DNA of 64,000 bases, from assembly GCA_015059545.1 (NCBI GenBank), contig SVAG01000001.1:167381-231380 (forward strand). Direction: 5' to 3'. The translations under genes and the position numbers were made by a program. Source of the DNA: Lactobacillales bacterium (GTDB taxonomy: Bacteria; Bacillota_I; Bacilli_A; RF39; UBA660). Under the pieces are notes generated by a model. That model was not told where the DNA came from. It saw only the letters and a program-made list of their open reading frames with translations, and made no database searches. Every line of letters starts with the position of its first letter. Position 1 is the stretch's first letter. Shown piece after piece: positions 15,554 to 33,707 of the stretch.

Positions 15554-17131
15554 GTGGTACTTAGAAAACCATATAAGTTTCTTATAAAGCATTTTAAAAT
15601 GATTCACTTAATATTAGCAGTAATAAGTGGATACTTACTTATTAAAACAAATGGAATTTTAAATTTTTTTAATGGGTATTTAAATAATAATCAAACATTA
15701 ATTGGATCAGGAACTGTTAATGAGTATTTTAATAATATTATGTCGATATTCGTAATAGTAGTAATAATTGGTACTATTATTATTGGAATAATAATGAAGA
15801 TGAAAGATAAGCCTATAGTTTTCTATATTGTAAATTTAATAGCTTACATAATTATAGGAGTTATATATGTTTATGACAAATCATTAATTGAAACACTTGA
15901 ATTAAAAGTTTTAGATATAAGAACTATTAAATTAGCTAGTGATTTAACTTTAATCTGTTTCTTAGTTCAAACTTTAAATACAATAATTTTATCAATACGT
16001 GCTGTTGGATTTGACTTAAAAAAATTTGATTTTGGTAAAGATATGGAATTCGAAATTGATGAAAAAGATAATGAAGAATTCGAATTTGATGTAAGTATAG
16101 ATAAAAATAAAATTAGAAGAAATGTAAAGAAAAATATAAGAAATATTAAATATGCATATCATGAAAATAAATTTGTTACTAATATTGTGATTGTAGTAGT
16201 AATAGCTGCAATTGGAATAATGTTTTATTTAAATAAAGAAGTATTTAATAAAGTTTACAAAAAAGGTGAAATGATAAATACACCACAATTTAGTTATTCA
16301 TTAGTAGATAGTTATATAACAGATAAAAACTATAGAAATAACAAGATTACTGATAATTATCTTGTAGTAGCTAAATTAAATATTAAAAATAATACAGATG
16401 AAAAAATTAAATTTGAAACTGCAAGAGTATTATTACATATAGGTAAAGTAACTTATAATCCAACTACTAAATATAAAGATGAATTAATAGATTTAGGTGT
16501 GGATATAGCAAATAAAAGTATAAAAAAAGATTTTGAAGAATATGTTGTTACATTTGAAATACCAAAAGAAGACATTTCTGAAAAAATGATATTAAGCTAT
16601 AACGATATAAGTAATAAAACACATGCAATTAAATTAAATAATATTAAATTTGATAATAAAAAAGAAAACATAAAATCATATTTAATGGGGAATATGACTA
16701 TAGAAGATGAAGTATTAAAAAATGTGAAATTTAAAATTAATAAATTTGAAATAAATAATAAAATTAAATCTATCTATAAATTTTGTGAAACAGATACTGT
16801 TTGTTATGAATCATACGAATATATGGTTCCTACATTAACAGATAATTACAACAAAGTTATTATGAAAATAGAAAGTGAAATTGATTTTAATGGTCAAAAA
16901 ATTAAAAACTTTAGTGATTTATCAGATTTTATTGAAAATTATGGAACAATAAAATATAAAATAGGTGATGCAGAAAAAGAAATGAAAACAAAAATTATAG
17001 AAGTATTACCTACAAAAACAAAAACTAAAGGAGTCCATTATTTCGAAATATATGAAGAAATAAAAGATGCTACTGAAATTTCATTAATTTTAAATATTAG
17101 AAATAGAACTTATCAATATAAAATAAAATGA
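15554..17131 (+). CDS. Polytopic membrane protein with a large C-terminal extracytoplasmic domain (525 aa)
   Basis: GTG start after GGAGGGG. About 5 N-terminal TM segments plus one more near residue 210. No family recognised. Confidence 0.55.
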   Translation: MVLRKPYKFLIKHFKMIHLILAVISGYLLIKTNGILNFFNGYLNNNQTLIGSGTVNEYFNNIMSIFVIVVIIGTIIIGIIMKMKDKPIVFYIVNLIAYIIIGVIYVYDKSLIETLELKVLDIRTIKLASDLTLICFLVQTLNTIILSIRAVGFDLKKFDFGKDMEFEIDEKDNEEFEFDVSIDKNKIRRNVKKNIRNIKYAYHENKFVTNIVIVVVIAAIGIMFYLNKEVFNKVYKKGEMINTPQFSYSLVDSYITDKNYRNNKITDNYLVVAKLNIKNNTDEKIKFETARVLLHIGKVTYNPTTKYKDELIDLGVDIANKSIKKDFEEYVVTFEIPKEDISEKMILSYNDISNKTHAIKLNNIKFDNKKENIKSYLMGNMTIEDEVLKNVKFKINKFEINNKIKSIYKFCETDTVCYESYEYMVPTLTDNYNKVIMKIESEIDFNGQKIKNFSDLSDFIENYGTIKYKIGDAEKEMKTKIIEVLPTKTKTKGVHYFEIYEEIKDATEISLILNIRNRTYQYKIK

Positions 17132-17221: not shown

Positions 17222-20200
17222 ATGAAAAATTTAAAAAAATATTTAACAATATCATTAATATTTGTAATATTTTTAATTAATATAAATGAAGTATCTGCAG
17301 CAGCCGCAACTTATAGTGCAAATGCTGGGACTGCTTACAATGGTGGTGCAGTGTCTAATAGTTGTGCAGGTAAGACAAACTGTGCAGTTAGTAGTGATAG
17401 CGAAATGATAATTCAAGCTAAAATGTATTATGTAAATAATGGTTCTTTTGATGTGGTGGGAGCAACAGCTTACTTTGTAGATAGTGATGCATATAATATT
17501 TTAAAAGATAAAGGATTAAATTTAATATATGTGCCTATGTTCAATCAATATAGATCACATGAACAGGCTGCTGAATACTTAAAATCATATTTTGGATCAG
17601 GAGCAAGAACAACAACTGATGGAATAAATTTTTTAAAAACTATAACTGGTTTACAAGATTATTCGGAAATGGTTAGTAATCAAAGTCAAGGTGTAGGTGG
17701 AACAAAAGGATATAGAGTAGTTATAGAACCAGCATATAGATATGCTAATCCAACATTTGGTACAAATTATACATATGCATTAATGACTCCTAAAGGGTTA
17801 GCTGCTGAAAAATATGTAGATGGTGTTAATACTACATGTTTAGGAGAAGTTAATAAACAATCTATATGCATTAGACCGGTTTTAGGTTTAAATTCTCAAT
17901 CTCAATATTTACGTGTTAAATCAAATGATGTAGGAATAGAAGCAGCAAGTGTTGATTATTGTTCTAGACAAGCTGCAATCTCAGATATTGCTAATAAACA
18001 AATTGGTTGCGGATATGATATGATTGATATGAGTAAATATGTGATTGTAAAAAAATGTTATTCACAAAAAGTAAATATTAGCAATAAAAATTTTAGTTGT
18101 AAAAATTATGATGAAAATAATGTTATAAAGTTTACTGAAGAATATAAAAATGATTGTAATTCTACAAGTCCTACAGGCTTTAACGAATCAGGAAAATATA
18201 TAGCAGAAAGTGGAACTTGTAAAATTTATTGTAAAGAATCAGCACAGGTTAGTTTACCTGGAAATATTTCAGGATCAATACAAAGAGGATCTTACTTTGC
18301 GTGGCCTACAAGACCGGACGATGCTAGTGGATTGTATAGTATGAATATGAAATCTACATTAGTTTGTACAATAAAAGATACTGCAGCTCTAGCACAAACA
18401 GTAGGTACAGAATTAATTATGGGATGTCAAGAAAATTTTACACCTTATAATAGAGATACTTGCCGTTCTATAACAGATAAAACAGAGAAAATATGCCCAT
18501 TCGGAACGGAAGAAAGAAATGGAAAATGTTATAAATTAGCAAATGCTACTAAAATAACAGATGCATTAACTACTGAACAAGTTAGTAAAGTATGTCCATC
18601 TGATGGAACATATGAATTAATAGATAATAAATGCTATCATCAAGTTAACCCTACATCAAAAGATGAGGCTTCAACTAGTAAAGTATGTCCAGATGGATAT
18701 AAAACTAATTCAGGTGGAACTGGTGATAAAGCTTGTAAAAAAACGGTTGACAATTGGGTATGTCCACAATACTATAGTACTAATCCTGGAGGGTCAGGTG
18801 ATTACGCCTGTAGATTAAAAAAATATAAATACTATGGTGCAGAGTATGGAAGTGTTGATGGTGGGAAAAGTAGTATTTGTGAATCTGTATATGGAGGATG
18901 GTTTGTAAATGGTAAATATTGCAATCCTTACTCTGATCCTTGTTGTAAAATACCAGATGGATATTGGTATAAACCAAAAGTTAATAGTCCAACTACTAAA
19001 TATGCAGCAAAAAAATGCTTAGGTGGAGAAGATTCAAAAGGAAATTGTAAGCCATATTGTGCAAAAGGAACTGCTGTAAAAGTTGATAAAAAATATAGAT
19101 GTATTGTATGTCCAAGTGGGTATAAAGTATCTAGTGTTGCTGGTAAATGTGTTAAAAAGAAAAATACTGCAAAAGTGTGCCCATCAGGATCAAGTTTAAA
19201 TTCTTCAGATAATAAATGCTATAAAATTGTTCCACCATATTGTACAAAAGGTACATTAATGGATGTTAATTTCAAATATAAATGTTTAACATGTCCAAGT
19301 GGATATAGTGTGTCTTATATAAATAAAGGTAGATGTGTTCAAAATTCAGAAACAGCTAAAGTATGCCCATCAGGATATGTAGAAGTAAAATCTACAGGAG
19401 AATGTTATTTAGCAGCTAAGAAAAACAAACCTAAATTTAGTTGTCCATCAGGGTATACTATGAATTCAGATCAAGAAACATGTAACAAAGTATGTAACAA
19501 AGAAGATTTAGTAAATAAATCAAGCTCAGTAATTATTAGTGATGAAACTAATCCTATCAGTGCTTCATTAGTTGCTGGTTCAAATATAGAACTAAAAAAA
19601 ATAGAAGAGCCTGTAAAAACATTTAAAGAAACAAAAGATAATGTTGATATTTATACATTTGAAAGAGTTGCTCATTTTAAAATTGAAGAAAACACAAATA
19701 GATATTATGATAGATTAACAGGCGCTGTATCTAATCAAGGAGAATCGAGTGAAAGAATTTTTGATAGAGGAGAAGGAGTTATATCAGTTTCTAAAACCGC
19801 AAAAACATATGATGATAATGGAAACATATTTAAATATAAACTTCAAATAAAAGATATTAATATAGGTAGTGGGGGTAGATTTGGTAAATTAATAACAAAC
19901 TATTCATGCGAATATATAGTAACTGAAGATGACGATGATTGTGTTTGTCCGAATGGAACAAAAAATGCTGGAATGTCATTAAATGAACTTACTGCAAAGT
20001 ATTGTAATAATGTTAATAAGACTTGTTCAGAATGGCAATACTTATTATGTGATTCACCATATTCAAAAATACTTGAAATCGAAGGATGTACAGATAAATT
20101 ATATTGCAATAATACACAAACAAATGCAAAAATTAATATAACAGATTGTGTAAAAAAAGAAGCTGATACTAAAACTTTAGATAAAGCAATTAATACATGT

Positions 20201-21049
20201 CAAACAAATCAAACAGAATGTACAAATAATTGGTGTTATAATCAAAAAAATAATAAACCTGTACCTATAGCAGATTGTCTAAGTGAAGGAAATTCAAGAG
20301 AAACATGTTATAGAAAAATGGGATGTACTACAGATATTTGTGAAGATGGAAAATGCTGTACAGGTACATGTAAATGGTCATATGGAAAAACAAAGGATAA
20401 TACTGTAACATATGGATATCAAACATGTAACAATAATAGATATTGTGGATTTATAGCATATTGTACAAATGATAGCAGAAAAACATCTATTCATACAAAT
20501 CAATGTATTCAAAGTAAATTAAAAACAACAAGTATCACTGGATATTTAAATACTGAAAGGAATTTTGAAAAATTAAAAGAATCAGTAGAAGCATGTAAAT
20601 CAACAATTTGTGCATCAAGTGAAAAAATTGTTTATAGAGTTGTAGATTTAACAAATCCTTTCCCTGGAAAAGATGGAATTAAAAATGCTTTAACTATAGT
20701 GAATGCTAATAGAGAACCTGGATACAACTGGAATTCAGAAACAGCTATAAAAGAACAAATTTTAAATGGTAGAGGAGCATCAGGATACGAATTATATAAT
20801 AAAGAACCTCTTATAACAATCAAACTTACACCAAGCGATATAAAAGCAATAAAAAAATATAATGAAACAACACCATATAATAATTTTGATATGAATTGTA
20901 TAAGTGGTGATAGTGCATCAGGATGTATAAGTAATTTTTTACATAAAAATGAACTTAATTTAGATATAGATGGGGTTGCAAATTGTACAAATTTAAATGC
21001 ATCTTCTTCTATAGAACAATTTAACAATTGTTATAACAAAGAGAATTAA
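17222..21049 (+). CDS. Giant secreted Cys-rich protein, paralog 1 (about 1275 aa), with a central CPxGY Cys-repeat cassette
   Basis: Sec signal peptide MKNLKKYLTISLIFVIFLININEVSA (ATG at 17222, 9 nt after AGGAAAG; the ORF track starts at a TTG at 17186). It shares long conserved N- and C-terminal blocks with the ORFs at 21781 and 26300. No LPXTG motif or C-terminal TM seen. Confidence 0.8.
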   Translation: MKNLKKYLTISLIFVIFLININEVSAAAATYSANAGTAYNGGAVSNSCAGKTNCAVSSDSEMIIQAKMYYVNNGSFDVVGATAYFVDSDAYNILKDKGLNLIYVPMFNQYRSHEQAAEYLKSYFGSGARTTTDGINFLKTITGLQDYSEMVSNQSQGVGGTKGYRVVIEPAYRYANPTFGTNYTYALMTPKGLAAEKYVDGVNTTCLGEVNKQSICIRPVLGLNSQSQYLRVKSNDVGIEAASVDYCSRQAAISDIANKQIGCGYDMIDMSKYVIVKKCYSQKVNISNKNFSCKNYDENNVIKFTEEYKNDCNSTSPTGFNESGKYIAESGTCKIYCKESAQVSLPGNISGSIQRGSYFAWPTRPDDASGLYSMNMKSTLVCTIKDTAALAQTVGTELIMGCQENFTPYNRDTCRSITDKTEKICPFGTEERNGKCYKLANATKITDALTTEQVSKVCPSDGTYELIDNKCYHQVNPTSKDEASTSKVCPDGYKTNSGGTGDKACKKTVDNWVCPQYYSTNPGGSGDYACRLKKYKYYGAEYGSVDGGKSSICESVYGGWFVNGKYCNPYSDPCCKIPDGYWYKPKVNSPTTKYAAKKCLGGEDSKGNCKPYCAKGTAVKVDKKYRCIVCPSGYKVSSVAGKCVKKKNTAKVCPSGSSLNSSDNKCYKIVPPYCTKGTLMDVNFKYKCLTCPSGYSVSYINKGRCVQNSETAKVCPSGYVEVKSTGECYLAAKKNKPKFSCPSGYTMNSDQETCNKVCNKEDLVNKSSSVIISDETNPISASLVAGSNIELKKIEEPVKTFKETKDNVDIYTFERVAHFKIEENTNRYYDRLTGAVSNQGESSERIFDRGEGVISVSKTAKTYDDNGNIFKYKLQIKDINIGSGGRFGKLITNYSCEYIVTEDDDDCVCPNGTKNAGMSLNELTAKYCNNVNKTCSEWQYLLCDSPYSKILEIEGCTDKLYCNNTQTNAKINITDCVKKEADTKTLDKAINTCQTNQTECTNNWCYNQKNNKPVPIADCLSEGNSRETCYRKMGCTTDICEDGKCCTGTCKWSYGKTKDNTVTYGYQTCNNNRYCGFIAYCTNDSRKTSIHTNQCIQSKLKTTSITGYLNTERNFEKLKESVEACKSTICASSEKIVYRVVDLTNPFPGKDGIKNALTIVNANREPGYNWNSETAIKEQILNGRGASGYELYNKEPLITIKLTPSDIKAIKKYNETTPYNNFDMNCISGDSASGCISNFLHKNELNLDIDGVANCTNLNASSSIEQFNNCYNKEN

Positions 21050-21068
21050 TTTTATTAATTCTTTTTTT
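21042..21068 (+). terminator. AT-rich hairpin plus T-run after giant protein 1
   Basis: AGAATTAAT (21042-21050) pairs with ATTAATTCT (21054-21062), followed by TTTTTT. Confidence 0.45.
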
Positions 21069-21098
21069 ATTAAATAAATGACACAAATATTAAATGTG

Positions 21099-21107
21099 TG
21101 ATATAAT
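21099..21107 (+). promoter_or_regulatory. Extended -10 element TGATATAAT upstream of the small partner 1 / giant protein 2 operon
   Basis: TGnTATAAT lies 27 nt upstream of the ATG at 21134. Confidence 0.4.
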
Positions 21108-21133
21108 CTATAATGAATGATAAGGGTGATTAT

Positions 21134-21766
21134 ATGAAAAAAATATTTTTTGGAGTAGTTAGTTTCTTTATTATGATGATTAATGCTAATGCAGCATGTG
21201 ATGATGAAGAAATGATTAGATTATCAAAACTTGCTAATAATGTAGCAAGTAATTACTATTTTGATCCAGAAACACAAAAATTTGAAATAACATTTACAAA
21301 TGTTACAAAAGAAATTGTTATAACAGATTTAATTAATGGGCAAATGTATAATGAAGATATTGAATTTACAATAAAAAATTTAGAATCAGGTAATTATAGA
21401 TTTAATATTACATCAACTGATGTTAGTTGTACAGGTGAAACATTAGTTACAAAATATATAAATTTACCTTATTATAATAAATTTTATACATCTGAAGAAT
21501 GTAAGGGTATAGAAAATTATTCGTATTGCAAAAAATGGGTAAAAAATGAAATATCAGAAAGTATTTTTCAAAAAAAAGTAACTCAATATAAAGAAAATTT
21601 AAATAAAGAAATAAAACAAGAAGTAATAGAAGAAACAGTTTTGGATAAAATAAAAAAAGTAATTCTTGATATATATGTAAATTATTATTATATAATTTTA
21701 CCTTTATTCATAACTATTTTATGTATAATAATTTATATAAAAGATAAGAGTGATGATATCTTATAA
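21134..21766 (+). CDS. Small signal-peptide plus C-terminal-TM protein, partner family copy 1 (210 aa)
   Basis: The ATG at 21134 follows AAGGGTGA. Signal peptide ...INANA, then CDDEEMIRLSKLANN, CKGIENYSYCKKW and a C-terminal TM (YYYIILPLFITILCIIIYI). It is a paralog of the ORF at 25651. Confidence 0.7.
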   Translation: MKKIFFGVVSFFIMMINANAACDDEEMIRLSKLANNVASNYYFDPETQKFEITFTNVTKEIVITDLINGQMYNEDIEFTIKNLESGNYRFNITSTDVSCTGETLVTKYINLPYYNKFYTSEECKGIENYSYCKKWVKNEISESIFQKKVTQYKENLNKEIKQEVIEETVLDKIKKVILDIYVNYYYIILPLFITILCIIIYIKDKSDDIL

Positions 21767-21780
21767 AAGGCGGTGAAAAT

Positions 21781-24700
21781 ATGAATAAAAGAAAAAACAT
21801 GTTTATAACATTATTGATTATGTTTTTTTCTTTTGTTTGTGTAAATAAAGTGACTGCTTTATATAATGGTAGTGGTGGAACAGGGTATGATGGTGGTTCA
21901 AGAGGTGACTGTGGAAGTATAGTAAACTGTTCATACAACAACTCTAATATGTTAATAATGCAAGCGAGATTATATTACATTAATAATGGTTCGTTTTCTC
22001 ATATTGGGAAAACATATTATTTTGTAAATAAAAATGCTTCGGATTTTTTAGCTGGCAAAGGACTCAATTTAATTTATATAAGTGCTTTTGATGGATATGG
22101 AAAAAATTATCAAAAAGCTAGTAAATATTTAAAAGAAACATATTTTGGAAATACAGCAACTAACCCAAAAAAAGATACAGCAATAACTTTTTTAAATAAT
22201 GTTACAAGTTCAGATAATTATCTGAAGGTTTTAACTAAAAAAAGTGAATTTGCAAATAAAACGACAGCAGCAAAAAAAGGATATAGAATTATCATAGAAC
22301 CTGCTAATAATTATGCTAATCCTTCATTCAGTAATAATACACATGCTTTAATTACAGTAAAAGGTATGGCAGGTGAAGTAAAAGGTGGAGCCCACATATC
22401 ATGTTTAGGTACACCTGGAGCAACTACTACTGTGTGTGGTAATCCTTTATTAGGTAATGGATCACAAGCTCAGTTATTATTCACAAATTTTAAAGATGTA
22501 GGAATTTCAGCTGCATCAAAAGAAATATGTGAAAAAATTACAATAAATGGACTAGCTGATATAAAAAAAGGTTGTGGATATAATATTGTTGATATTAGCC
22601 AATATGTTGATGAACCAGAATGCTATGTTAGCAGTTTAAATGGAGCATTAACCTGTGATAATACAGATGAAAACAATGTTACAGATTTTACTGAAACTTA
22701 TACAAAATTAGAAAAGTGCCCAGCTGATATATCAGAAGACGAACAACAACAAATTAGTAAAGATGGAAAAATAATAGGTACAACTATTGGAACTTGTACT
22801 ATGTATTGTAAAGAATCAGCGATTGCTAGTTTTCCTGGAAATGTAGGTAACTTAATTCAAAGAGGATCTTATTTTGCATGGCCAACAAGACCAGATGATA
22901 CAAAAGGATTATATAGTATGAGCATGCAATCAACATTTACTTGTAAAATACAAGATGAAGGAGCTGCAGATACAGTAGCTGCTACATATACAAGAAAATG
23001 TATTGGAAATACTACAGAATTTGATGAAGATAATTGTAGATCAAAAACAGAAACTAAAACTAGATTGTGTCCAAAAGATTACTATTTAAGCGGAACTACA
23101 TGTTATAGTAATGCAACATATTGTGCTAATGGTGTAAAAGAAAACGGGAAGTGTAAAATAACGACATATTATTGTGCATCAGGATACACACTTTCAGGAA
23201 AAAAGTGTTATACATATGCTTGTCCAAGTGATTCACAAATTTATAGTGGCTCAGGTTCAAATATGCTGTGTACTAAAACTGAAAAAGTGTGTCCATCTGG
23301 ATGGAATCCATATGGAACATCAGGAACAGAATGTGCTAAAAATGCAACTCCTATATATAGCTATAAATGTTCGGAAGGTTCGTTAAATGAATCATCTTGT
23401 TTAAAAAATGCAACAACAACTAGATTTTGTCCGTCTGGGACACAAAATGGTGAATGGTGTTATAGAAGCAAAGCACCTAATGCAAGTTGTCCTCAGGGGT
23501 GGACAAAAGTTACAGAATATAAATGTAAAAAATATACTAGTTCAAAATACACTTGTCCATCAGGTTGGACACCATATGGAACATCAGGATCACAATGTAA
23601 AAAAAATGCTACGAAATATATTAGTTCTTACTCTTGTAAAGAAGGGGACTTAAAAAGTTCGATGTGTGTAACAAAAAAAGAAAATAAAACAACGATATTT
23701 AAAGCTACAAAAGTAGAGGTTAATGCATATACAAAAGTGACATATGAAAATCCATATAGTAAGACAACTGCTTCTACTTGCCCAGAAGGCACTGGTGATT
23801 CAGGAGGAAAATGTTATATCTTATCAGAAAAAGTGACAACTGATTATAGATGCCCAAAAGGATACACTTTAAATGGAAAAACTTGTGTTAATAATTGCGA
23901 TAAAACAAAATTAATAAATAATGTAAAAGAAATATTAAAAAATAATAAATATGAAGCTCATCTAACAGCGGGTACAAATAATCCACTTACAAATATTAAA
24001 TTACAAATTGCAAAAATAGAAGAAAATTATGATGATAATAAACTTGTTTTCACCAAGAAAGTATATTTTAAAATCCCATCAGATGCTACTAGTGGTAAAA
24101 ATAGATATTATAATAAAATAACAGGAATTGTTTCTGATTCATCTTCTTTAAGTAATACAATTTTTGATAGAGGAGAAGGAGTAGTATCAACAAGTTTAAG
24201 AGATAAAATTCTTGTTGGTAATAATATAAAAAAATATGAGCTAAAAATCACAGGAGTTAAATTAGGTACAAATAATCAATTTGGAGAAAAAATAACAAAT
24301 TATACATGTAATTATAGTGTCACTGATAATGGTGATGATTGTGTATGTCCGGATGGAACAACGAATGCAGGTGTATCAATTAAATATTTAAAGAAACAAT
24401 TATGTGAAAGTGAACAAGGAACAGAAAACAAAACATGTGTTGATTGGCAAAATGATCTTTGTAATTATGATGGTACAAACGGAAATGAAATAGAAGAATG
24501 TACAGTAACTAATAAATTTTATTGCATAGATTCTAAAAATAGTAAAAAAGATAATCCTATAAAAATAGATATAACTAGTTGTGTAAGATCATTAATGGCA
24601 AGTACAGGTTCCAATTTAGAAGAATCTATAACAAAATGTACAAATGCTCAATCAAAATGTACAAATGAATATTGTATTAATTCAAAAACAGGAGAACAAA

Positions 24701-25509
24701 TTTTAATTAAAGATTGCTTGGAAAATAATTCTAGAATGGCTTGTTATGAAAAATATGGATGTTTACTTGATATATGTGAACCAGGTAAATGTTGTACTGG
24801 AAAATGTAATTGGACTTATAAAAATCTTGAAAAAATGGTTTATGGTATACAAACTTGTAATAATGACGGAAGAACTAATCAGTATTGTGGGTTTGAAGTA
24901 TATTGTTCCACAGATAAAACAACATCAAAATCAGCAAAACAATGTATAGAACAACAATTAAATACAAATGATGTTTTGAAAAAAATAAGCACAGGTTTAA
25001 ATCAAAGTGAACTTCAAAGAGCTATAACAGCTTGTGAAACTAAAGTTTGTTCAGTTAATTCGAAAATTGTTTATAGAACTATAGATTTAACAAATCCGTT
25101 CCCTGGTAAAAGTGATAAGAGAAATGAAGTAGGATTTTCGTTATTAAATCAAAAAAGTAGAACACCGGGATACAATTGGAATTCTAAAAACACAGTAAAA
25201 GAAAAAATATTAAATGCTAGAGGTGTAGAAGGATATAATTTATATAACAAACAACCACTTATTACAATAACATTAACACCTAATGATATAAAAGAAATCA
25301 GAAAATATAATGAAAAAACAGCATATAATGATTTTAAATTAAAATGTGTTAATAATGATGAATCGTCATCTTGTATTAGTTACTTTTTACATTCAAGTTC
25401 TACAACACTTGGTAAAAACCTTAATATAAAAGGAGTTAGTAATTGTACTAAATTAAATGCTTCATCAAATGTTCAAGATTTTAATAAATGTTATAATTCT
25501 AACAATTAA
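21781..25509 (+). CDS. Giant secreted Cys-rich protein, paralog 2 (1242 aa), with a central CPSGW/CPxGY Cys-repeat cassette
   Basis: It starts 14 nt after the partner gene. Signal peptide ...VNKVTA. The conserved blocks (GYRIIIEPANNYANP, RGSYFAWPTRPDD, DCVCPDGT, KIVYRTIDLTNPFPGK, PGYNWNS) are colinear with paralogs 1 and 3. Confidence 0.85.
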   Translation: MNKRKNMFITLLIMFFSFVCVNKVTALYNGSGGTGYDGGSRGDCGSIVNCSYNNSNMLIMQARLYYINNGSFSHIGKTYYFVNKNASDFLAGKGLNLIYISAFDGYGKNYQKASKYLKETYFGNTATNPKKDTAITFLNNVTSSDNYLKVLTKKSEFANKTTAAKKGYRIIIEPANNYANPSFSNNTHALITVKGMAGEVKGGAHISCLGTPGATTTVCGNPLLGNGSQAQLLFTNFKDVGISAASKEICEKITINGLADIKKGCGYNIVDISQYVDEPECYVSSLNGALTCDNTDENNVTDFTETYTKLEKCPADISEDEQQQISKDGKIIGTTIGTCTMYCKESAIASFPGNVGNLIQRGSYFAWPTRPDDTKGLYSMSMQSTFTCKIQDEGAADTVAATYTRKCIGNTTEFDEDNCRSKTETKTRLCPKDYYLSGTTCYSNATYCANGVKENGKCKITTYYCASGYTLSGKKCYTYACPSDSQIYSGSGSNMLCTKTEKVCPSGWNPYGTSGTECAKNATPIYSYKCSEGSLNESSCLKNATTTRFCPSGTQNGEWCYRSKAPNASCPQGWTKVTEYKCKKYTSSKYTCPSGWTPYGTSGSQCKKNATKYISSYSCKEGDLKSSMCVTKKENKTTIFKATKVEVNAYTKVTYENPYSKTTASTCPEGTGDSGGKCYILSEKVTTDYRCPKGYTLNGKTCVNNCDKTKLINNVKEILKNNKYEAHLTAGTNNPLTNIKLQIAKIEENYDDNKLVFTKKVYFKIPSDATSGKNRYYNKITGIVSDSSSLSNTIFDRGEGVVSTSLRDKILVGNNIKKYELKITGVKLGTNNQFGEKITNYTCNYSVTDNGDDCVCPDGTTNAGVSIKYLKKQLCESEQGTENKTCVDWQNDLCNYDGTNGNEIEECTVTNKFYCIDSKNSKKDNPIKIDITSCVRSLMASTGSNLEESITKCTNAQSKCTNEYCINSKTGEQILIKDCLENNSRMACYEKYGCLLDICEPGKCCTGKCNWTYKNLEKMVYGIQTCNNDGRTNQYCGFEVYCSTDKTTSKSAKQCIEQQLNTNDVLKKISTGLNQSELQRAITACETKVCSVNSKIVYRTIDLTNPFPGKSDKRNEVGFSLLNQKSRTPGYNWNSKNTVKEKILNARGVEGYNLYNKQPLITITLTPNDIKEIRKYNEKTAYNDFKLKCVNNDESSSCISYFLHSSSTTLGKNLNIKGVSNCTKLNASSNVQDFNKCYNSNN

Positions 25510-25540
25510 AATACTATTGAAAAAACAATAGTATTTTTTT
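25508..25540 (+). terminator. Intrinsic terminator after giant protein 2
   Basis: AAAATACTATTG (25508-25519) pairs with CAATAGTATTTT (25526-25537) around a 6-nt loop, followed by a T-run. Confidence 0.65.
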
Positions 25541-25585
25541 GTAATCAAAATGTTTAAAAAATAACCATTTAATACCATTATTTAT

Positions 25586-25613
25586 TTGCAATTGAAAAAA
25601 AATATGTTATAAT
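25586..25613 (+). promoter_or_regulatory. Sigma-A-type promoter for partner 2 / giant protein 3 and downstream Tad genes
   Basis: TTGCAA at 25586-25591, a 16-nt spacer, and the extended -10 TGTTATAAT at 25605-25613. Confidence 0.55.
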
Positions 25614-25650
25614 TAATAATGAGAATAGGAGACTAAAGGAGGCTGGCGTG

Positions 25651-26292
25651 ATGAAAAGAAGATTTTGTTTTTTTCTTTTGCTGTTTCTAATAGTCTTTAT
25701 ACCACATAAAACAAAAGCACTATGTGATGATTCGGAATATATAAGATTATCGAAATTAGCGCAAAATATAAAAACAGCATATGTATATAACTCAAAAAAA
25801 GATAATTTTACAATAACAATAACAAATTTAAAAAAAGATCTTAGAATAGAATATTTAAATGATTCAAAAAAATATATTACTGATAAAGAAATAAATATAT
25901 ATAATTCTTATTCAGGAACACATACTTTTATGATATATGCTAATAGTGGTAGTTGTGCTAATGAACTTATGACAACAAAATATATTAAATTACCTTTCCT
26001 TAATCCATATGCTGATGATGATATGTGCAAAGGTATAGAAAATTATGTATATTGTCAAAAATGGAGTAATGTAAACGATAACAAAGAATTATATTATAAA
26101 AAAATATTTGAATATAGAAAAGAATTGGAAAATAAAAAAGAAAAAAAAGAAATTGTGCAAAATAATGAAAATGCAGTTTTTAAATTTATAAGAGAAAAAT
26201 ATGTTGAATATTATCATATAATTTTACCTTCTGCTATTTCAATATTATGTCTTGCAATTTATATAAAAAATAAAAAAGAAAGTTTAGTGTAG
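25651..26292 (+). CDS. Small signal-peptide plus C-terminal-TM protein, partner family copy 2 (213 aa)
   Basis: AGGAGG at 25637-25642. Signal peptide, then CDDSEYIRLSKLAQN, CKGIENYVYCQKW and a C-terminal TM (YYHIILPSAISILCLAIYI). An alternative GTG start lies at 25648. Confidence 0.7.
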   Translation: MKRRFCFFLLLFLIVFIPHKTKALCDDSEYIRLSKLAQNIKTAYVYNSKKDNFTITITNLKKDLRIEYLNDSKKYITDKEINIYNSYSGTHTFMIYANSGSCANELMTTKYIKLPFLNPYADDDMCKGIENYVYCQKWSNVNDNKELYYKKIFEYRKELENKKEKKEIVQNNENAVFKFIREKYVEYYHIILPSAISILCLAIYIKNKKESLV

Positions 26293-26299
26293 AGGTGAA

Positions 26300-29266
26300 A
26301 TGATGAAAAAAATATTTGTTACACTTTTTGGAATTCTTTGTTGTTTAAATTTCACTAATGTAAAAGCTGCTTACAATGGTGAGGGTGGAGTTTTTGTTCA
26401 TAATGATGGTAATAAAGAATGTGAAGGGTCTAATTGTCAATATGATAACTTTAATAGATTTTATGTAAAATTAACTTTATATTATATTGATAATGGAAAT
26501 TTTGAAACAATAGAAAAAACTAAATCATTTTATGTAACTAGTACAAGTTACAAAAATTATTTAACAACAAGTTTAGGTGTGCCAGAATCAAGCGTATATA
26601 CATTACCTAAAAAATGGCAAGATAAACTTGATAAAATTAGTAATACTGATTCGAAAAGATATGAAAAAACTTCTAATCTGTTAAAAGATTGTTTCGGTGA
26701 TCAAATGGAAAAAATAGATAACATTAGAAGTAAAAATTTAAAAGATTTTTTGAATAAAGCAACTGGTGGAGATTATGAAAGCGTTTTGACAAAAGATACA
26801 GAAAATGCAAACCGTAATGGTTTAATAAGCGAAGGAACTGCAGCAAAAAAAGGATATAGACTTGTAATAGAACCTGCTATTGCATATACAAATGCAACTT
26901 GGGCAAATGGTGGAGGAGGAATCCTTACAGTAAAAGGAACTGCTCAAAAAAGAGTTAGTGGAGTTAGTTTTAGAAGTTATAGTTTACCTCTAATTCCGGG
27001 TGAAGGTGACCCAAAACAATTACCACAATCACAATTTCTACAAACAAGTTTTGATGATGTTGGAATAAAAGCTCAAAGTGAAGGATATTGTGAAAAAAAA
27101 GTTACACTTAATCAACTTGCTGATTTAAAAAATGGTTGTGGATATAATATTATTGATATTGGTAGATTTATAAAACATTATTGTTATTATAAGAATGTAG
27201 AAGATGGAAAATTAAAATGTGTTAATAAAGATCAAAATAATAATGGTGATTTTAAAGAAACATATACCAAAAAAGAATGCTCTACAGAAGAATATAAAAC
27301 AAATACAAATACAAAATATGGAAGATTGATTAAAAAAATAGATAATTGTTCAGTTTATTGTATTGAATCAGCAACTGCGAGTTTTCCAGGACATATATCA
27401 AAAACTTTACAATTAGAAAGTTTTTCTCAAAAAGGTAATTATTTTACATGGCCATCTAGAATAGGTACTAATGGTATGAAAATGTATATGAAAACAAAAT
27501 TAACATGCCATATAAGAAATAATGATGGAAAAACATGTAGTGAAAAGAATATAGAAAGCTTACAAAAAGCTGTTAAATCAGAATTGGATAGTTTAGAAAT
27601 GAAAGCTTCACTAAAAGCTGGGACAAATAAAGAAATAGATGGAAGTTTAGTTTCATACATTGTTAAAGGTCAAGATATAGAATATAAAAATAAAGAAACA
27701 ACTACATATACAGATGGTTATAGAAATGAAAATTGGAATAATGTAAAAGTCAATAAAAAAGAAGATGGGGAAGTATGGAGTAACAAATTCTCTATTGAAA
27801 AGAAAATTTATTTTAAAATTCCTAATGATAAAAATAGATTATATAATAAAGAAAGTGGAAATGTATTTGATGGTATAGCTTCCACTGGAAAAAATATATA
27901 TGATAGAAAAGAGGGAGTTGTCTCTTTGTTATCTGATCAAGATACGAAACCAATATATAATTTAGAAATAAAAAATGTACAATTAGGTGCAGGTAATCAA
28001 TTTGGAACATTAATTGATGAATATAAATGTAATTATAGAATAACAACTCAACCACCATGTGCTTGTCCGGAAGGAACAGTAATGGAAGGGACATCTTTAT
28101 ATGACAAATTGACAGAAGGAAAAACATGTGCTGAATTACAAGAAACATTGTGTAATGTTTGTACATGTCCTCCAAATGCAGCAAATCAATATGAAAAAGA
28201 ATTAGTAGGAGAAGAAGCTACAACAGCAGCATGTAAAAAATTACAAGACGAAAAATGTTATAATTATGACTATTGTACTTTTAATGGTAAACAAATAAAT
28301 CTTACATCTTGTATTGATACGAAAATGAAAGAAAATGGACTGACTAAAGTAGAAGCTTCTACTTATTGTGAACAAATGTTATGTCCAGAATGTACAGATT
28401 CATATGGAATTAAACATGATTTATCTGCTTGCCTAGAAACTGGGAGACCATATATTCTGTGTGAACAAAAATATTGTCCAGGTCAAGTATGTATAGATGA
28501 AGATTGCTATGAATGTAGTCAGAATTGTAAATGGACTTTAAAAGAAAAAACAAAAACAACAGTTGCATATAAAAAACGTTGTGATGATGGAGAAAATTGT
28601 GGATACATTAAAATGTCATGCCCAGCAGGAAATGAAAATATGCTTAATGCAGACAGTTGTATTAAGACACAATTGAAAGATGATTTAAAAGGAAATAGTG
28701 TTGCAGATGGTCTTACTAAAGGATTAATAACGGATGCAGATGTTAGAAGTGCATTTGCTGCTTGTGAAGAAAAAGTTTGTCCATATTCAGGTAGTAAGAT
28801 AATTTATAGACAAATAGATTTAAATGATCCATTCCCAGGTAAAAATCATAAAGGAACTGGAGAAACAAAATATTCAAATAATAATCAAAATGTTAAAAGT
28901 AGAAAACCAGGTGAAAACTGGAATTCAGATGATGTAATAAAAACAAGAATTTTGGAAGCAAGGGGAGTAAAAGGATATGAGTTATATAATAAAGATCCTT
29001 TATATATAATTGTTCTTACTCCAGATACTATGAAAAAAATACGTGAGTATAATTCAAAAAATAAATATGATGATTTTGAATTAACTTGTACAAATATAAA
29101 CAAAACATCTCATTGTATAAGTGATTTCTTGCATAAAGGAATTGGTAATTTAAATCCAAGTGATTTTATTAAACCATCATATGGAAATAAAAATAGTGTT
29201 AATGCTTGTTATAATATGGATTATAGTGAAGGTTCATTTAATAACTGTTATAACGAGAATAATTAA
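26300..29266 (+). CDS. Giant secreted Cys-rich protein, paralog 3 (988 aa), lacking the central Cys-repeat cassette
   Basis: It starts 7 nt after the partner gene. Signal peptide ...FTNVKA. It shares the N-terminal (GYRLVIEPAIAYTNA) and C-terminal (CACPEGT, KIIYRQIDLNDPFPGK, PGENWNS) scaffolds, and the cassette is replaced by a short linker. An alternative ATG lies at 26303. Confidence 0.85.
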   Translation: MMKKIFVTLFGILCCLNFTNVKAAYNGEGGVFVHNDGNKECEGSNCQYDNFNRFYVKLTLYYIDNGNFETIEKTKSFYVTSTSYKNYLTTSLGVPESSVYTLPKKWQDKLDKISNTDSKRYEKTSNLLKDCFGDQMEKIDNIRSKNLKDFLNKATGGDYESVLTKDTENANRNGLISEGTAAKKGYRLVIEPAIAYTNATWANGGGGILTVKGTAQKRVSGVSFRSYSLPLIPGEGDPKQLPQSQFLQTSFDDVGIKAQSEGYCEKKVTLNQLADLKNGCGYNIIDIGRFIKHYCYYKNVEDGKLKCVNKDQNNNGDFKETYTKKECSTEEYKTNTNTKYGRLIKKIDNCSVYCIESATASFPGHISKTLQLESFSQKGNYFTWPSRIGTNGMKMYMKTKLTCHIRNNDGKTCSEKNIESLQKAVKSELDSLEMKASLKAGTNKEIDGSLVSYIVKGQDIEYKNKETTTYTDGYRNENWNNVKVNKKEDGEVWSNKFSIEKKIYFKIPNDKNRLYNKESGNVFDGIASTGKNIYDRKEGVVSLLSDQDTKPIYNLEIKNVQLGAGNQFGTLIDEYKCNYRITTQPPCACPEGTVMEGTSLYDKLTEGKTCAELQETLCNVCTCPPNAANQYEKELVGEEATTAACKKLQDEKCYNYDYCTFNGKQINLTSCIDTKMKENGLTKVEASTYCEQMLCPECTDSYGIKHDLSACLETGRPYILCEQKYCPGQVCIDEDCYECSQNCKWTLKEKTKTTVAYKKRCDDGENCGYIKMSCPAGNENMLNADSCIKTQLKDDLKGNSVADGLTKGLITDADVRSAFAACEEKVCPYSGSKIIYRQIDLNDPFPGKNHKGTGETKYSNNNQNVKSRKPGENWNSDDVIKTRILEARGVKGYELYNKDPLYIIVLTPDTMKKIREYNSKNKYDDFELTCTNINKTSHCISDFLHKGIGNLNPSDFIKPSYGNKNSVNACYNMDYSEGSFNNCYNENN

Positions 29267-29278
29267 GGAGGTATATAA

Positions 29279-29680
29279 ATGAAAGAGTCTTTTTGGGGAA
29301 CAATGATATTATCATTTGGAGTAATAGCTATAGTTTTTATATACTTTTTCCAAAATATTACTAATACAGATCAACAAAATTACAACTTACTAAAAGAAAC
29401 AACAGAAGCAGCAATGTATGATTCGATTGATCAAGTAGAATATCAAAAAAATGGTAATATAAAAATAAATGCAGAAAAATTTATTGAAAACTTCATAAGA
29501 AGATATGCAGAAAATGCAAGTTTATCAAATACATATGTTATTGAAATTTACCATATTAGTGAATATCCTCCGAAGGTTAGTTTACTAGTTAAATCTTCTG
29601 AATCAACAAATGCGACAGGAGAAATAATGGAATTTGATATAACAAATAGAATAGATGCTATTCTAGAAACACCATATTAG
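29279..29680 (+). CDS. Pilin-like/TadE-like protein with a short G-terminated leader (133 aa)
   Basis: MKESFWG followed directly by a hydrophobic helix, TMILSFGVIAIVFIYFF. The RBS is AAGGAGG. Confidence 0.5.
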   Translation: MKESFWGTMILSFGVIAIVFIYFFQNITNTDQQNYNLLKETTEAAMYDSIDQVEYQKNGNIKINAEKFIENFIRRYAENASLSNTYVIEIYHISEYPPKVSLLVKSSESTNATGEIMEFDITNRIDAILETPY

Positions 29681-29744: not shown

Positions 29745-30572
29745 ATGAATAATTTTATGATTTCGTTACAAAAGTTTTTTAAAAACAAAAACACAGTTAC
29801 TATCATTGGAGTAGTAGCAATAATCTTAATCTTGTTTTTTGGATATCGTTACCAAATCAATAAACAAGTAAGTCCTGTAACAGGTATTCCAGTTGCAGCA
29901 ACAACAATTCAACCAAGAACAAAAATCACAGACGATATGTTAGAATATATCGATGTAGCACCAATCGTATTACAAAAAGGAGAAGTAATAACTAATAAAA
30001 ATGCTATAGTAGGAAAATATAGTAATTATAATACAGTTATTCCAAAAGGTAGTATGTTCTATAATGCTACAGTTATTAATGAAGAAGAATTACCAGATTC
30101 AGCTTTCATAGAAGTTGAAGATGGACAAGTTCCATATAACTTCCCAGTTACAATGGATACAACATATGGAAACTCAATTTTCCCAGGTAATTATGTAGAT
30201 ATCTACATGAAAGCTGTAAGAAAAGATGGAAAATTAATGGTAGGAAAATTACTTGAAAATGTTAAAGTATTAGCTGTTAAAGATTCAGCAGGTAGACATG
30301 TTTTTGAAAACAGTCAAGAAGCTAGAACACCAGCATTCTTAATCTTCGGTGTATCACCAGAAGTAAATATATTACTTAGAAAAGCAAGTTATATGAGTAG
30401 TTATTCTACAGTATTATTCCCAGTTCCACATGGAGCAACAATTGAAGAAGAAGGAGCAACTGCTGTTACTTCACAAACATTAAAAGATTTCATAAATGCC
30501 AATACAGTAGCTAATGATGAAATTGAAGACAAAAAACAAACTACTGAAACAACTACAACTGTTACAGAATAG
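29745..30572 (+). CDS. cpaB: Flp pilus assembly protein CpaB/RcpC-like (SAF domain), membrane-anchored
   Basis: 275 aa. N-terminal TM segment, then a SAF-like segment IPVAATTIQPRTKITDDML...ITNKNAIVGKYSNYNTVIPKGSMF. It lies directly upstream of the CpaF-like ATPase. Confidence 0.6.
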   Translation: MNNFMISLQKFFKNKNTVTIIGVVAIILILFFGYRYQINKQVSPVTGIPVAATTIQPRTKITDDMLEYIDVAPIVLQKGEVITNKNAIVGKYSNYNTVIPKGSMFYNATVINEEELPDSAFIEVEDGQVPYNFPVTMDTTYGNSIFPGNYVDIYMKAVRKDGKLMVGKLLENVKVLAVKDSAGRHVFENSQEARTPAFLIFGVSPEVNILLRKASYMSSYSTVLFPVPHGATIEEEGATAVTSQTLKDFINANTVANDEIEDKKQTTETTTTVTE

Positions 30573-30582
30573 AGATAGATAA

Positions 30583-31983
30583 ATGAACGATTCAATGTTT
30601 TCCCAAATTGATTTTGGGGAACTAAATAAATATTTGAACGATGATGATGTAACCGATATTTCATATAGTAATAATGGTCAACTTTGGTTAAAAACTTTAT
30701 CAAAAGGTATTTATAGAGTTGATAATGAAACTGTTAACAATGCATTTATGGAAAAGTTAGCCTTTCAATGTGCTAACGTTATGGGAAAAACCTTTAACAT
30801 GGCTCATCCATTCCTGGATGCTGAAGGAGCAGAGCTACGTTTAAACTTTGTTCATGATTCAATCGCAAAAAATGGTATAGCTGTGTTAATGCGTAAGACA
30901 CCAGCAAAAATAAGATTAGAAAAAGACAAATTATTAAAAGATGATTATGTAGCGTTAGATATACATGATTTCTTAATAAAATGTGTCAGGGGGCATTGTA
31001 ACATCATTGTATGTGGAGAAACAGGTTCAGGTAAAACCGAATTTGTTAAATATTTAGCTTCACATACAAAAGAAGATGAAAAATTAATTACAATAGAAGA
31101 TACATTGGAATTACACTTAGATCGTATATTCCCACATAGGGATATAGTAGCAATGAAAACAAATAATATAGCTTCATATAGTGAAGTGTTAGTGACATGT
31201 ATGAGACAGAACCCAAAATGGATATTACTATCCGAAGTTCGTAGTGCTGAAGCAGTACTTGCTGTAAGAAACTCAATTTCTTCAGGTCACTATATTTTAT
31301 CTACAATACATGCTGATAAAGCAGCAAGTATTCCAAACCGTATGTACAGTTTGCTTGAAACAAATCAAGATATTGAACAATTCTTAAAATCAATATATAG
31401 ATATATTCAAATAGGTGTATATATAAGAGGATATCAAGATAAAAAAACAAGAAAATTTCATCGTGAAATAGCAGAAGTAACAGAATTTTATGTTACAGAA
31501 GATAATGAAGCTGAATATAATACAATTTATAGAAAAACTACAACTGGTAAAGTTGTAAGAAAAAGTCCATCTAAATATTTAATAGATTACTTAGATGCAC
31601 AAGGTGTAATTTTATCAAAAGACGAAATAGAAGAAGGAGAAATTGAACCTCCGGAAGATTTTGAAACACCTAATATTAGTGAAGTTCCTACAAATAATTT
31701 AAATGTTCAACAAAATGTTCAACCAAATATTCAAAATAATGGAAATGTTAATAATACAATAAGACCACAAATGAATAATATGAATGGTCAAAATATGGTA
31801 AGATCAAATCCAATACCAAATATTTCAAACAATGTTGGACAAACTATTAATAATGGAACAAATTATCAAAATACACAAGTAATTAATAATTCATCAAATA
31901 GACAAATGAATCCAAATGTTGGTTATAATCAAGTTAATTATAATGTAAATCCTTATGCAAACCAAGGAAATAAAACAGAATAA
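30583..31983 (+). CDS. cpaF: CpaF/TadA-family secretion ATPase (T2SS-E/VirB11 superfamily) with an N/Q-rich C-terminal tail
   Basis: 466 aa. Walker A GETGSGKTE, Asp/His-box-like regions (LITIEDTLEL, SEVRSAEA, STIHAD), and a roughly 110-aa Asn/Gln-rich low-complexity tail. Confidence 0.8.
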   Translation: MNDSMFSQIDFGELNKYLNDDDVTDISYSNNGQLWLKTLSKGIYRVDNETVNNAFMEKLAFQCANVMGKTFNMAHPFLDAEGAELRLNFVHDSIAKNGIAVLMRKTPAKIRLEKDKLLKDDYVALDIHDFLIKCVRGHCNIIVCGETGSGKTEFVKYLASHTKEDEKLITIEDTLELHLDRIFPHRDIVAMKTNNIASYSEVLVTCMRQNPKWILLSEVRSAEAVLAVRNSISSGHYILSTIHADKAASIPNRMYSLLETNQDIEQFLKSIYRYIQIGVYIRGYQDKKTRKFHREIAEVTEFYVTEDNEAEYNTIYRKTTTGKVVRKSPSKYLIDYLDAQGVILSKDEIEEGEIEPPEDFETPNISEVPTNNLNVQQNVQPNIQNNGNVNNTIRPQMNNMNGQNMVRSNPIPNISNNVGQTINNGTNYQNTQVINNSSNRQMNPNVGYNQVNYNVNPYANQGNKTE

Positions 31984-31995
31984 AGGAGGTAAAGA

Positions 31996-33689: not shown

Positions 33690-33707
33690 AATACTTTACA
33701 CAAAATA

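Follow-up and report, generated by a model that had tools for sequence, protein, structure and literature searches.

A 64,000-nucleotide (nt) stretch of contig SVAG01000001.1 (hereafter the window, meaning the whole stretch that was analyzed) carries three paralogous genes, here called G1, G2, and G3, at the head of a cluster of Tad-like pilus and type IV secretion system (T4SS) genes. By analogy, the described systems that would come closest to G in working are PilY1/PilC, TraN, and the adhesin/exclusion pairs of Gram-positive conjugation. PilY1/PilC of Pseudomonas and Neisseria is a ~1000-amino-acid (aa), Sec-exported non-pilin with a conserved C-terminal domain and a variable N-terminus, and its gene lies near those of minor or pseudo-pilins. 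TraN, of F-type conjugation, is a Cys-rich, exported accessory of the T4SS whose variable region sets which surface protein of the recipient is bound; it is an outer-membrane protein of diderms, and its receptor is a porin of the recipient rather than a co-encoded partner. In PrgB/PrgA (pCF10), ConG/YddJ (ICEBs1), and TraG/Eex (SXT), a T4SS-encoded adhesin or channel protein is accompanied by a small exclusion protein, and the specificities of the two co-vary. In TraA/TraB of Myxococcus, a polymorphic N-terminal domain precedes repeats rich in Cys and, at the C-terminus, a conserved element for sorting or anchoring, and the alleles define recognition groups; recognition by TraA is homotypic, and TraA is unlinked to pili or T4SS.

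Like PilY1/PilC, G is a large, Sec-exported non-pilin encoded beside a pseudopilin-like gene, with a conserved C-terminus and a variable N-terminus, a likeness that is one of architecture only: the beta-propeller domain of PilY1/Neisseria_PilC gave neither a Pfam match (E ≤ 0.1) nor a PDB fold match (E ≤ 1e-3) in G. Unlike PilY1, G is Cys-rich and belongs to a Tad-like, T4SS-linked system in a monoderm, and we know of no co-varying small partner gene of PilY1. The TraN domain had no Pfam or NCBIfam match in G. Unlike the PrgB, ConG, and TraG systems, with which it shares no homology, G lacks both a C-terminal transmembrane (TM) segment and an LPXTG sorting signal of the MSCRAMM or PrgB type, and its locus appears to be vertically inherited rather than mobile. 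It also differs from TraA in showing no homology and no Pfam match, hence no match of the PA14 or MYXO-CTERM type.

The sole related published account is that of the DUF5411-CpaF-PilC operons of the Clostridia Roseburia, Ruminococcus, and Eubacterium, a computationally predicted, uncharacterized secretion-related system (PMC9523054). Like the window, these operons encode a DUF5411 protein, a CpaF-type ATPase, a PilC/TadB-like protein, and a large putative surface protein; unlike G, that large protein is described as having a "cell invasion domain, remote InlB homology," and T4SS genes are not reported (PMC9523054). In the literature on RFN20 pili, RF39 T4SS, and Firmicutes with Tad plus VirB4, we found no description of the present locus. 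We propose, with a probability of roughly 0.45, that G is a machine-docked recognition or adhesion subunit of the Tad-pilus/T4SS, that S, a small gene usually found directly 5' of G, encodes its cognate partner, and that the N-terminal head of G together with S is a swappable cassette. New here would be a putative recognition subunit from an unannotated family whose predicted folds are unmatched, in a new partner arrangement.

The G proteins and the module around them

The order of genes from 15.5 kb is U525, G1, S1, G2, S2, G3, DUF5411, CpaB/RcpC, and a VirB11/TadA-type ATPase. The genes of the module and the parts of G are as follows.

15554 to 17131, + strand: U525, 525 aa, a multi-pass membrane protein whose large C-terminal part lies outside the cytoplasm
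17222 to 21049, + strand: G1, 1275 aa, exported, 72 Cys (5.65%), long form
18434 to 19501, + strand: central insert of G1 (about residues 405-760), with ~11 two-Cys hairpin-like repeats
21113 to 21766, + strand: S1, 217 aa
21781 to 25509, + strand: G2, 1242 aa, exported, 69 Cys (5.56%), long form
22993 to 23895, + strand: CPxG-repeat insert of G2 (about residues 405-705)
25648 to 26292, + strand: S2, 214 aa, ending 8 nt 5' of G3
26300 to 29266, + strand: G3, 988 aa, exported, 45 Cys (4.55%), the short canonical form, which adjoins DUF5411 in all related loci
26369 to 27169, + strand: hypervariable head of G3, codons 24-290
27170 to 28054, + strand: beta-rich body of G3, codons 291-585
28055 to 28789, + strand: Cys-rich stalk of G3, codons 586-830
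28790 to 29263, + strand: conserved C-terminal domain of G3, codons 831-988
29279 to 29680, + strand: DUF5411 protein, 133 aa (Pfam PF17424, E = 6e-49), beginning 13 nt past G3

An earlier note on this DNA, made from the letters alone, had described three paralogous open reading frames (ORFs) with Sec leaders at 17222, 21781, and 26300, and these are present as described and colinear by alignment. Over their whole lengths, G1 and G2 are 38% identical; G1 shares ~30% identity with G3 in its N-terminal (1-400, E = 3e-60) and C-terminal (810-1275, E = 2e-38) parts. The reading frame of G1 is open from 17186, and the gene caller of a public collection places its start two codons before 17222. The motif blocks that the note had listed occur colinearly in all three proteins save GKCCTG, which is restricted to G1 and G2, as had been said. 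The motif A(A/L)YNG(G/S/E)GG, placed by the note after each signal peptide, does not hold for G1, which has TAYNGGAV at residues 37-44, ~12 residues past the predicted cleavage site, and the epithet "giant" is apt only in a relative sense for proteins of 988-1275 aa. The leader is of the classical long Sec type with an AxA-type cleavage site and is the sole hydrophobic stretch in G1-G3; no LPXTG motif, anchor repeat, or C-terminal TM segment was found, in agreement with the note. Four things had escaped it: the small S genes, the absence of the CPxG insert from G3, a head that is hypervariable and recombines, and a C-terminal domain that is conserved.

Cysteine makes up 4.55-5.65% of G1-G3 vs. 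1.27% of the 38 other ORFs of the window, and the dozens of fixed Cys noticed earlier are borne out by 23 positions that are at least 80% conserved among 129 family members. Since CxxC motifs are few and each protein has only 5-8 His, a disulfide scaffold fits these residues better than metal sites, and we infer that G is built on such a scaffold; for the same scarcity of CxxC and His, a metal-cluster reading was rejected. The ~350-aa insert of G1 and G2 that is missing from G3 consists of 10-11 two-Cys units of the form C-P-x-G-[YW]-...-C. Repeats of the same type fill an otherwise unrelated 816-aa ORF at 61242-63692 (+ strand), which has an N-terminal TM segment, 62 Cys, and 28 units of C-P-x-G-[YW]..G..C, each ~24-26 aa, and which matched no family in Pfam, NCBIfam, or PHROGs. 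The units presumably resemble the last hairpin of EGF domains; EGF-like, furin-like, and other curated Cys-rich repeat families had no Pfam match in G1, G2, or the 816-aa protein.

A conservation profile of 129 full-length members, in G3 numbering, showed residues 1-280 to be the least conserved, residues 281-620 to keep a scaffold of Cys, Gly, and aromatic residues, and residues 841-920 to be the most conserved. The body carries the motifs YCxESA..PG, G.YF.WP.R, NR.YNK, and DR.EGV with conserved Cys, and the stalk CxCPxGT with many more. Between G3 and its nearest ortholog (P0002), the head (24-280) is ~52% identical vs. 80-88% elsewhere, and against P0007 it is 18-24% identical vs. 58-82% elsewhere; no catalytic-type residue in the head is invariant across the 129 members. 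The C-terminal domain, with the consensus ..IIYR.IDL.NPFPGK..R.PG.NWNS..ARG..GY.LY.K.PLY.I.LTP..IK.IR.YN..Y.DF.L.C..C.S.FLH..F..CY., ends 0-7 residues from the C-terminus wherever it is complete (148 of 159 family proteins) and was found in no ORF of the window besides G1-G3. The earlier note had left unclear how the proteins stay attached to the cell, and this conserved domain is the likely answer.

The earlier note could assign these proteins to no family, and our searches in Pfam, NCBIfam, PHROGs, PDB profiles, and Foldseek bear this out. For G1-G3, Pfam returned no family at E ≤ 0.1, repeat and anchor domains included, and G1-G3, S1/S2, and U525 gave nothing over noise against Pfam, NCBIfam, and PHROGs. 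PDB sequence searches with profiles of 16, 24, and 148 sequences and tblastn against 50,697 phage records and 72,556 plasmid records were likewise without a match. An AlphaFold2 model of full-length G3, built on 16 sequences, had a mean predicted local distance difference test score (pLDDT) of 70, with residues 40-510 mostly at 80-95 (head mostly 72-90, body mostly 80-95) and the conserved C-terminal domain at only 30-45; a 95-sequence alignment remedied the latter, giving a model of residues 690-988 with a pLDDT of 84 (60-96 in the stalk region). Foldseek found no match at E ≤ 1e-3 to the full model in PDB or BFVD, and a best E of 0.33 in PDB for the C-terminal model; its top matches (HIV reverse transcriptase, phage tail terminators) are noise, with TM-scores of ≤0.17 on the query and ≤0.35 on the far shorter targets. 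PHROGs, Foldseek against BFVD (E ≤ 1e-3), and tblastn of phage records showed no likeness of G to phage receptor-binding or tail proteins, and G has neither the prepilin-type (class III) leader nor the TadE or VWA match of a TadG/TadE pseudopilin.

The G family was delimited by an exhaustive hidden Markov model (HMM) search of 1.84 billion representatives (50%-identity clusters), which recovered 1085 clusters at E ≤ 1e-3, of which 733 pass E ≤ 1e-10 and 202 pass E ≤ 1e-30; members are mostly 900-1100 aa long. A word-indexed search yielded 14 relatives only, and little was gained (five short proteins) when it was run with an alignment of the C-terminal domain. Sampled members have the leader, a terminal F..C[Y] motif, and ~3-5% Cys at full length (up to ~8% in fragments). 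Synteny was then read from 39 loci (numbered L001 and so on) in GTDB contigs, one genome per species. Nearly all come from gut metagenome-assembled genomes (MAGs) that bear the label of uncultured Bacilli, Firmicutes, or Tenericutes. Firmicutes bacterium CAG:822 and Ca. Coprosoma are among them, as are closed chromosomes with a size of 1.3-1.5 Mb. Ca. Coprosoma corresponds to the GTDB genus CAG-822 in the order RF39 (PMC8035907).

G is a family fixed in an operon slot at the head of the Tad/T4SS cluster. The order U525-S-G-DUF5411-CpaB-ATPase-TM301-TM262-p147-p154-p331-pilin(s)-TrbL is found in 30 of the 39 loci, and the closest G3 orthologs, on four of four metagenome contigs, stand in the order S-G-DUF5411-RcpC. 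The linkage to Tad/T4SS genes that had been noticed in the window, with G directly 5' of DUF5411-CpaB-ATPase, thus extends to 30 genome loci and four metagenome contigs, and homologs do not lie mostly away from such genes. U525 is directly 5' of S (or of G) in 31 loci and S directly 5' of G in 33 cases, with median gaps of 36 nt (U525-S), 9 nt (S-G), and 13 nt (G-DUF5411). In loci of the CAG-822 type, the upstream flank looks, by eye, like conserved housekeeping DNA (ScpB-, flavodoxin-, and uracil-DNA-glycosylase-like genes), which speaks for vertical descent and against a mobile element. A 163-aa gene 5' of U525 in these loci was considered as a prepilin peptidase and rejected, its sequence resembling, by eye, a housekeeping protein of the uracil-DNA-glycosylase type.

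One G per locus is usual, and the three of the window, the most seen, are an expansion. L001 and L043 have G1-like, S1-like, S2-like, and G3-like genes, i.e., a tandem S pair without G2, in which S1 either is the partner of the G1 that precedes it or has no G of its own, a situation that would recall orphan immunity genes. In L004 (5201-18730), from a rabbit-gut MAG, the entire U525-S-G-DUF5411 module is tandemly duplicated, which supports the view that the four act as one functional unit.

S1 and S2 are 40% identical and share a layout of signal peptide, ~130-aa ectodomain, charged helix, and C-terminal TM anchor; the ectodomain of S1 has conserved Cys. Lipoprotein anchoring of S was rejected, there being no lipobox, and only weak, sub-threshold matches to beta-sandwich proteins (DUF3244, Y_Y_Y, BapA-like) were obtained for S1. 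U525, with which the conserved module begins, has 31-67% identity between loci. The DUF5411 protein, also linked to CpaF/PilC operons in Clostridia (PMC9523054), has a prepilin-like leader (MKESFWG, then a hydrophobic stretch) that is kept in 31 loci. A leader of the form M[KR]E..G plus a hydrophobic stretch is common to DUF5411, p147, p154, and the 68-aa Flp-like protein of the cluster (Flp68), and is conserved in 27-31 loci, so that DUF5411 may be a pseudopilin. Since this leader is of the Flp/TadE type, the position of G beside a pseudopilin-like gene recalls that of PilY1/PilC beside minor pilins.

Co-variation and exchange of the head with S

The polymorphic head of G co-segregates with S and crosses species boundaries. 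Mantel tests on 28 single-copy loci gave r = 0.69 between head distances and those of the S ectodomain, and the partial r given the core machine was likewise 0.69 (p = 0.0002). Head distances correlated less with DUF5411 and U525 (r = 0.34-0.39) and with individual machine proteins (0.29-0.42); given the core machine, the partial r of the head was 0.08 with the U525 ectodomain, -0.13 with DUF5411, and -0.02 with G's own C-terminal domain. Clustering resolved 13 head types and 12 S types, which agreed with an adjusted Rand index of 0.73, vs. 0.18 for head types against C-terminal domain types and 0.22 against ATPase types; a single ATPase type contains five head types. Between types, heads can hardly be aligned at all (median BLAST identity ~3%). 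The C-terminal domain, for its part, has distances that still correlate with those of DUF5411, U525, and CpaB once the core machine is accounted for (partial r = 0.50-0.63).

Two loci from different species, L028 and L031, have in common a tract of 1,487 nt with 7 mismatches (99.5% identity) between flanks of 75-85% identity. The tract, at ~7064-8550 of L028, spans S codon ~70 to G codon ~343 and points to a recent exchange between species. The reverse is seen in L016/L025 and L018/L020, where the segment is 41-55% identical inside flanks of 80-90%. Exchange of head and S between species is as expected of a cell-recognition device.

The same segment stands out within the window's own lineage (L041-L044), to which the window's DNA is 91-98% identical in DUF5411/CpaB, 67-90% in S2, and 48-68% in the G3 head. 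Synonymous divergence (dS; Nei-Gojobori) between the window and L041 was 0.42-0.59 throughout S2 and G3 vs. 0.09-0.11 in DUF5411/CpaB, i.e., four- to five-fold higher, and the ratio of nonsynonymous to synonymous divergence (dN/dS) of the head was 0.66 (vs. L041) and 0.88 (vs. L044), compared to 0.04-0.22 elsewhere. Therefore, the alleles of S and G are older or imported ones, with the head gaining replacements fastest. As to inversion of the cassette or gene conversion between the three G paralogs, no sign of either was found, be it in long repeats of the DNA, in inverted repeats, or in genes for a recombinase.

The Tad/T4SS cluster and its surroundings

The ATPase gene is followed by two TadB/C-like genes, the 68-aa Flp-like ORF, two TadE/F-like genes, a TadZ-like gene, and two genes for T4SS_pilin-domain proteins, and then by TrbL/VirB6, VirB4, an M23 peptidase, and a VirD4/CD1115-family coupling protein.

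29745 to 35929, + strand: Tad-like pilus genes as a block
29745 to 30572, + strand: CpaB/RcpC
30583 to 31983, + strand: VirB11/TadA-type ATPase
31996 to 32901 and 32901 to 33689, + strand: two TadB/C-like membrane proteins (by topology and leader motifs only)
33774 to 33980, + strand: Flp-like prepilin, 68 aa (by topology and leader motifs only)
34004 to 34447 and 34460 to 34924, + strand: two TadE/F-like proteins (by topology and leader motifs only)
34934 to 35929, + strand: TadZ-like protein (by topology and leader motifs only)
36030 to 48704, + strand: T4SS genes as a block, including two T4SS_pilin-domain proteins
36471 to 37574, + strand: 367-aa T4SS_pilin-domain protein (pilin367)
37596 to 39950, + strand: TrbL/VirB6-like protein
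40822 to 42609, + strand: VirB4-like protein
42633 to 45053, + strand: M23 peptidase
46479 to 48704, + strand: VirD4/CD1115-family coupling protein

The TadB/C, Flp, TadE/F, and TadZ assignments had no HMM match. The 68-aa ORF (MKEAAGEANMTVITIVLIAIVLG...), which 29 related loci have in conserved form, resembles a Flp-type major pilin; a prepilin peptidase could not be identified in the window. The best-scoring families are those of the Mycoplasma integrative and conjugative element for VirB4 (Mbov_0397) and TrbL (Mbov_0396/MMCAP2_0566), with scores below their cut-offs, and the clostridial CD1115 family for VirD4. Neither a relaxase nor an integrase is visible in 64 kb, and housekeeping genes (rhodanese, DedA/VTT, RmuC, Lon, Ffh) lie 3' of VirD4; the locus therefore appears to be vertically inherited and not mobile, and the machine gives the impression of a domesticated or core T4SS joined to Tad-like pilus genes. 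Fast evolution extends to further exposed components of the machine: between the window and L001, pilin367 is 30% and TrbL 41% identical, their neighbors being 80-90% identical. G (48%) and S (47-49%) are similarly low, vs. 93% for DUF5411, 89% for CpaB, and 88-89% for the TadB/C-like proteins. Extracytoplasmic proteins here seem to be generally Cys-rich, with 10 Cys in pilin367 and 13 in the M23 protein. The ATPase has a long, Asn/Gln-rich, low-complexity C-terminal tail (residues ~370-466; NNLNVQQNVQPNIQNNGNVNN...), which the conserved part of its orthologs does not include.

The window has a GC content of ~25% and nearly all of its genes are on the + strand; at this composition, a promoter/terminator scan was uninformative (136 sites seen vs. 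143 expected). Upstream of the G cluster are pflB/pflA, bacA, and genes for a SpoIID-domain protein, an S11 carboxypeptidase, two nucleoside-recognition Gate proteins (SpmA/SpmB type), and a NAGPA-domain protein. The SpoIID-domain, Gate-domain, and S11 D-Ala-D-Ala carboxypeptidase genes lie at 8913-13169, and a LysM protein with a weak SpoVID-N match is encoded at 55418-56056; such sporulation-type genes would be unexpected if the organism belongs to a small-genome, RF39-like group. A 524-aa protein (790-2364, + strand) has a long, Pro-rich, extensin-like stretch of low complexity, with a match to Pfam Extensin_1 far under the cut-off.

Possible roles of G and its partner

In the reading that we prefer, G1-G3 would be surface subunits, exported by Sec and scaffolded by disulfides, of a Tad-pilus/T4SS apparatus that is fixed in the chromosome of RF39-type gut Bacilli. 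The C-terminal domain (~160-180 aa) would keep G cell-bound by docking onto some conserved component of the machine or wall, for which the adjoining pseudopilin-like DUF5411, U525, and CpaB are candidates, and the Cys-rich body and stalk, extended by the CPxG repeats in G1 and G2, would project an N-terminal head of ~270-340 aa. The head would be the specificity determinant and would bind a structure on another cell, as PilY1/PilC or TraN do. Membrane-anchored S may mask or exclude the cell's own head type, in the manner of surface exclusion, or may present or hold the head. Head and S would form a polymorphic cassette swapped by recombination between strains and species, and three G genes would give this organism three heads. 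The earlier note had offered tip adhesins or substrates of the machine as examples of what these proteins might be; an adhesive role is the part of that suggestion that we infer, whereas a cytoplasmic substrate recruited by VirD4 is disfavored by the Sec leader and Cys scaffold.

Several observations weigh against our proposal. G1 has no S gene directly upstream, and in eight loci G lies among housekeeping genes, seven times without an adjoining S and once with one, which indicates that S and the machine genes need not adjoin G. The neighbors of such orphan copies include, judged by eye, murG/ftsA/ftsZ-like or recA-like genes, and canonical and orphan copies occur together in at least two MAGs. 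The Tad and T4SS halves are never apart in the sampled loci, so that one cannot tell which half G serves. No adhesin, lectin, or Ig-like domain was detected in G by Pfam, NCBIfam, or Foldseek. The dN/dS of the head, being <1, is compatible with relaxed constraint and recombination, and the partial correlations of the C-terminal domain may reflect a shared acceleration of rate among exposed proteins rather than contact. Lastly, co-variation of head and S could come partly from physical adjacency; against this, it stops sharply at the U525/S junction, only ~36 nt off.

The main rival is a toxin-immunity pair, in which the head would be an extracellular antibacterial toxin, contact-delivered or released, S its immunity protein on the outer face of the membrane, and the rest of G a scaffold. 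Co-variation of head and S as a cassette that moves between species fits this rival as well, and so does high synonymous divergence, as of long-lived alleles. The topology of S suits immunity against an envelope-acting toxin, the tandem S genes beside one G in L001 and L043 resemble orphan immunity genes, and the locus has a VirD4-type T4SS with no relaxase in view. Polymorphic toxins (CDI, Rhs, LXG), however, have a conserved N-terminal delivery region, a variable C-terminal toxin, and an immunity gene immediately downstream, and in G this polarity is reversed: the N-terminus varies, the C-terminus is conserved, and the co-varying small gene is upstream. Pfam and NCBIfam showed no polymorphic-toxin domain in G, none of the heads matched a toxin or an enzyme by family or by fold, and the head lacks a family-wide invariant residue of catalytic type. 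Considering also that G1 and seven orphan G genes have no S at their side, and that G keeps a fixed single slot beside a pseudopilin-like gene in the machine operon of 30 species, we hold a toxin-immunity pair to be unlikely.

Equally doubtful is a ligand-free, structural or wall-spanning accessory, i.e., a scaffold or sheath whose N-terminus varies under pressure from antibodies or phages and for which S serves as tether or chaperone. G is universal, single-copy, and fixed in its operon position, its scaffold is conserved over the whole length with 23 Cys, its C-terminal domain co-varies with DUF5411, U525, and CpaB, and the exposed pilin367 and TrbL diverge fast too, all of which a structural part would explain. 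Evasion of immunity or phages, however, needs no co-variation of S with the head, yet their types agree closely and the equally exposed U525 ectodomain shows almost no partial correlation, and unalignable heads exceed the antigenic drift usual for a scaffold.

It is improbable that G proteins are general cell-coat or S-layer-like proteins merely encoded beside Tad/T4SS genes. The orphan copies amid housekeeping genes (L006, L007, L009, L011, L013, L017) and the presence of another Cys-rich repeat protein in the window (61242-63692) would be in keeping with such a role; against it stand a gene order that is identical in ~30 species, with gaps of 9-13 nt to the neighbors, the duplication of the four-gene module as a whole in L004, and the lack of any wall-binding domain (SLH, CWB2, choline-binding, LysM, SH3b) in G in Pfam or NCBIfam. 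That G proteins are T4SS-translocated effectors, with the C-terminal domain as a VirD4 recognition signal (like the XVIPCD of Xanthomonas X-Tfe) and S as immunity, would suit their variable N-terminus, conserved ~130-180-aa C-terminal domain, and adjoining small exported protein, and the VirD4 and VirB4 of the locus, but is hardly credible since XVIPCD-type effectors have no Sec leader, whereas G1-G3 and the sampled family members all carry a classical one, since 4-6% Cys at conserved positions fits an extracytoplasmic scaffold and not an unfolded or reduced cytoplasmic substrate of VirD4, and since G has no Pfam match of any kind.

RF39-type Bacilli are prevalent, uncultured, small-genome bacteria of the gut. 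The present work defines a protein family of ~1000 clusters without annotation or fold match, a conserved module of four genes that heads a hybrid Tad/T4SS locus, and an exchangeable cassette of head and partner that bears the population-genetic marks of a recognition system. A bolder extension of our proposal, which we consider a long shot, is that U525-S-G-DUF5411 is the partner-recognition organelle of a vertically inherited hybrid machine, that head types, matched by S, define mating, exclusion, or kin groups across species, and that genome-reduced RF39 bacteria use the machine to attach to specific partner cells and to exchange DNA or other material with them; if true, G would be a disulfide-built lock of new fold, and monoderms would have a cell-cell recognition code unlike the known adhesin, exclusion, and toxin families. 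If the head does mediate cell-cell specificity, it would reveal partner choice or kin exclusion in these organisms, provide markers for strain typing, and represent a new disulfide-rich extracellular scaffold from a strict anaerobe, as well as a candidate functional analogue of PilY1/TraN in monoderms.

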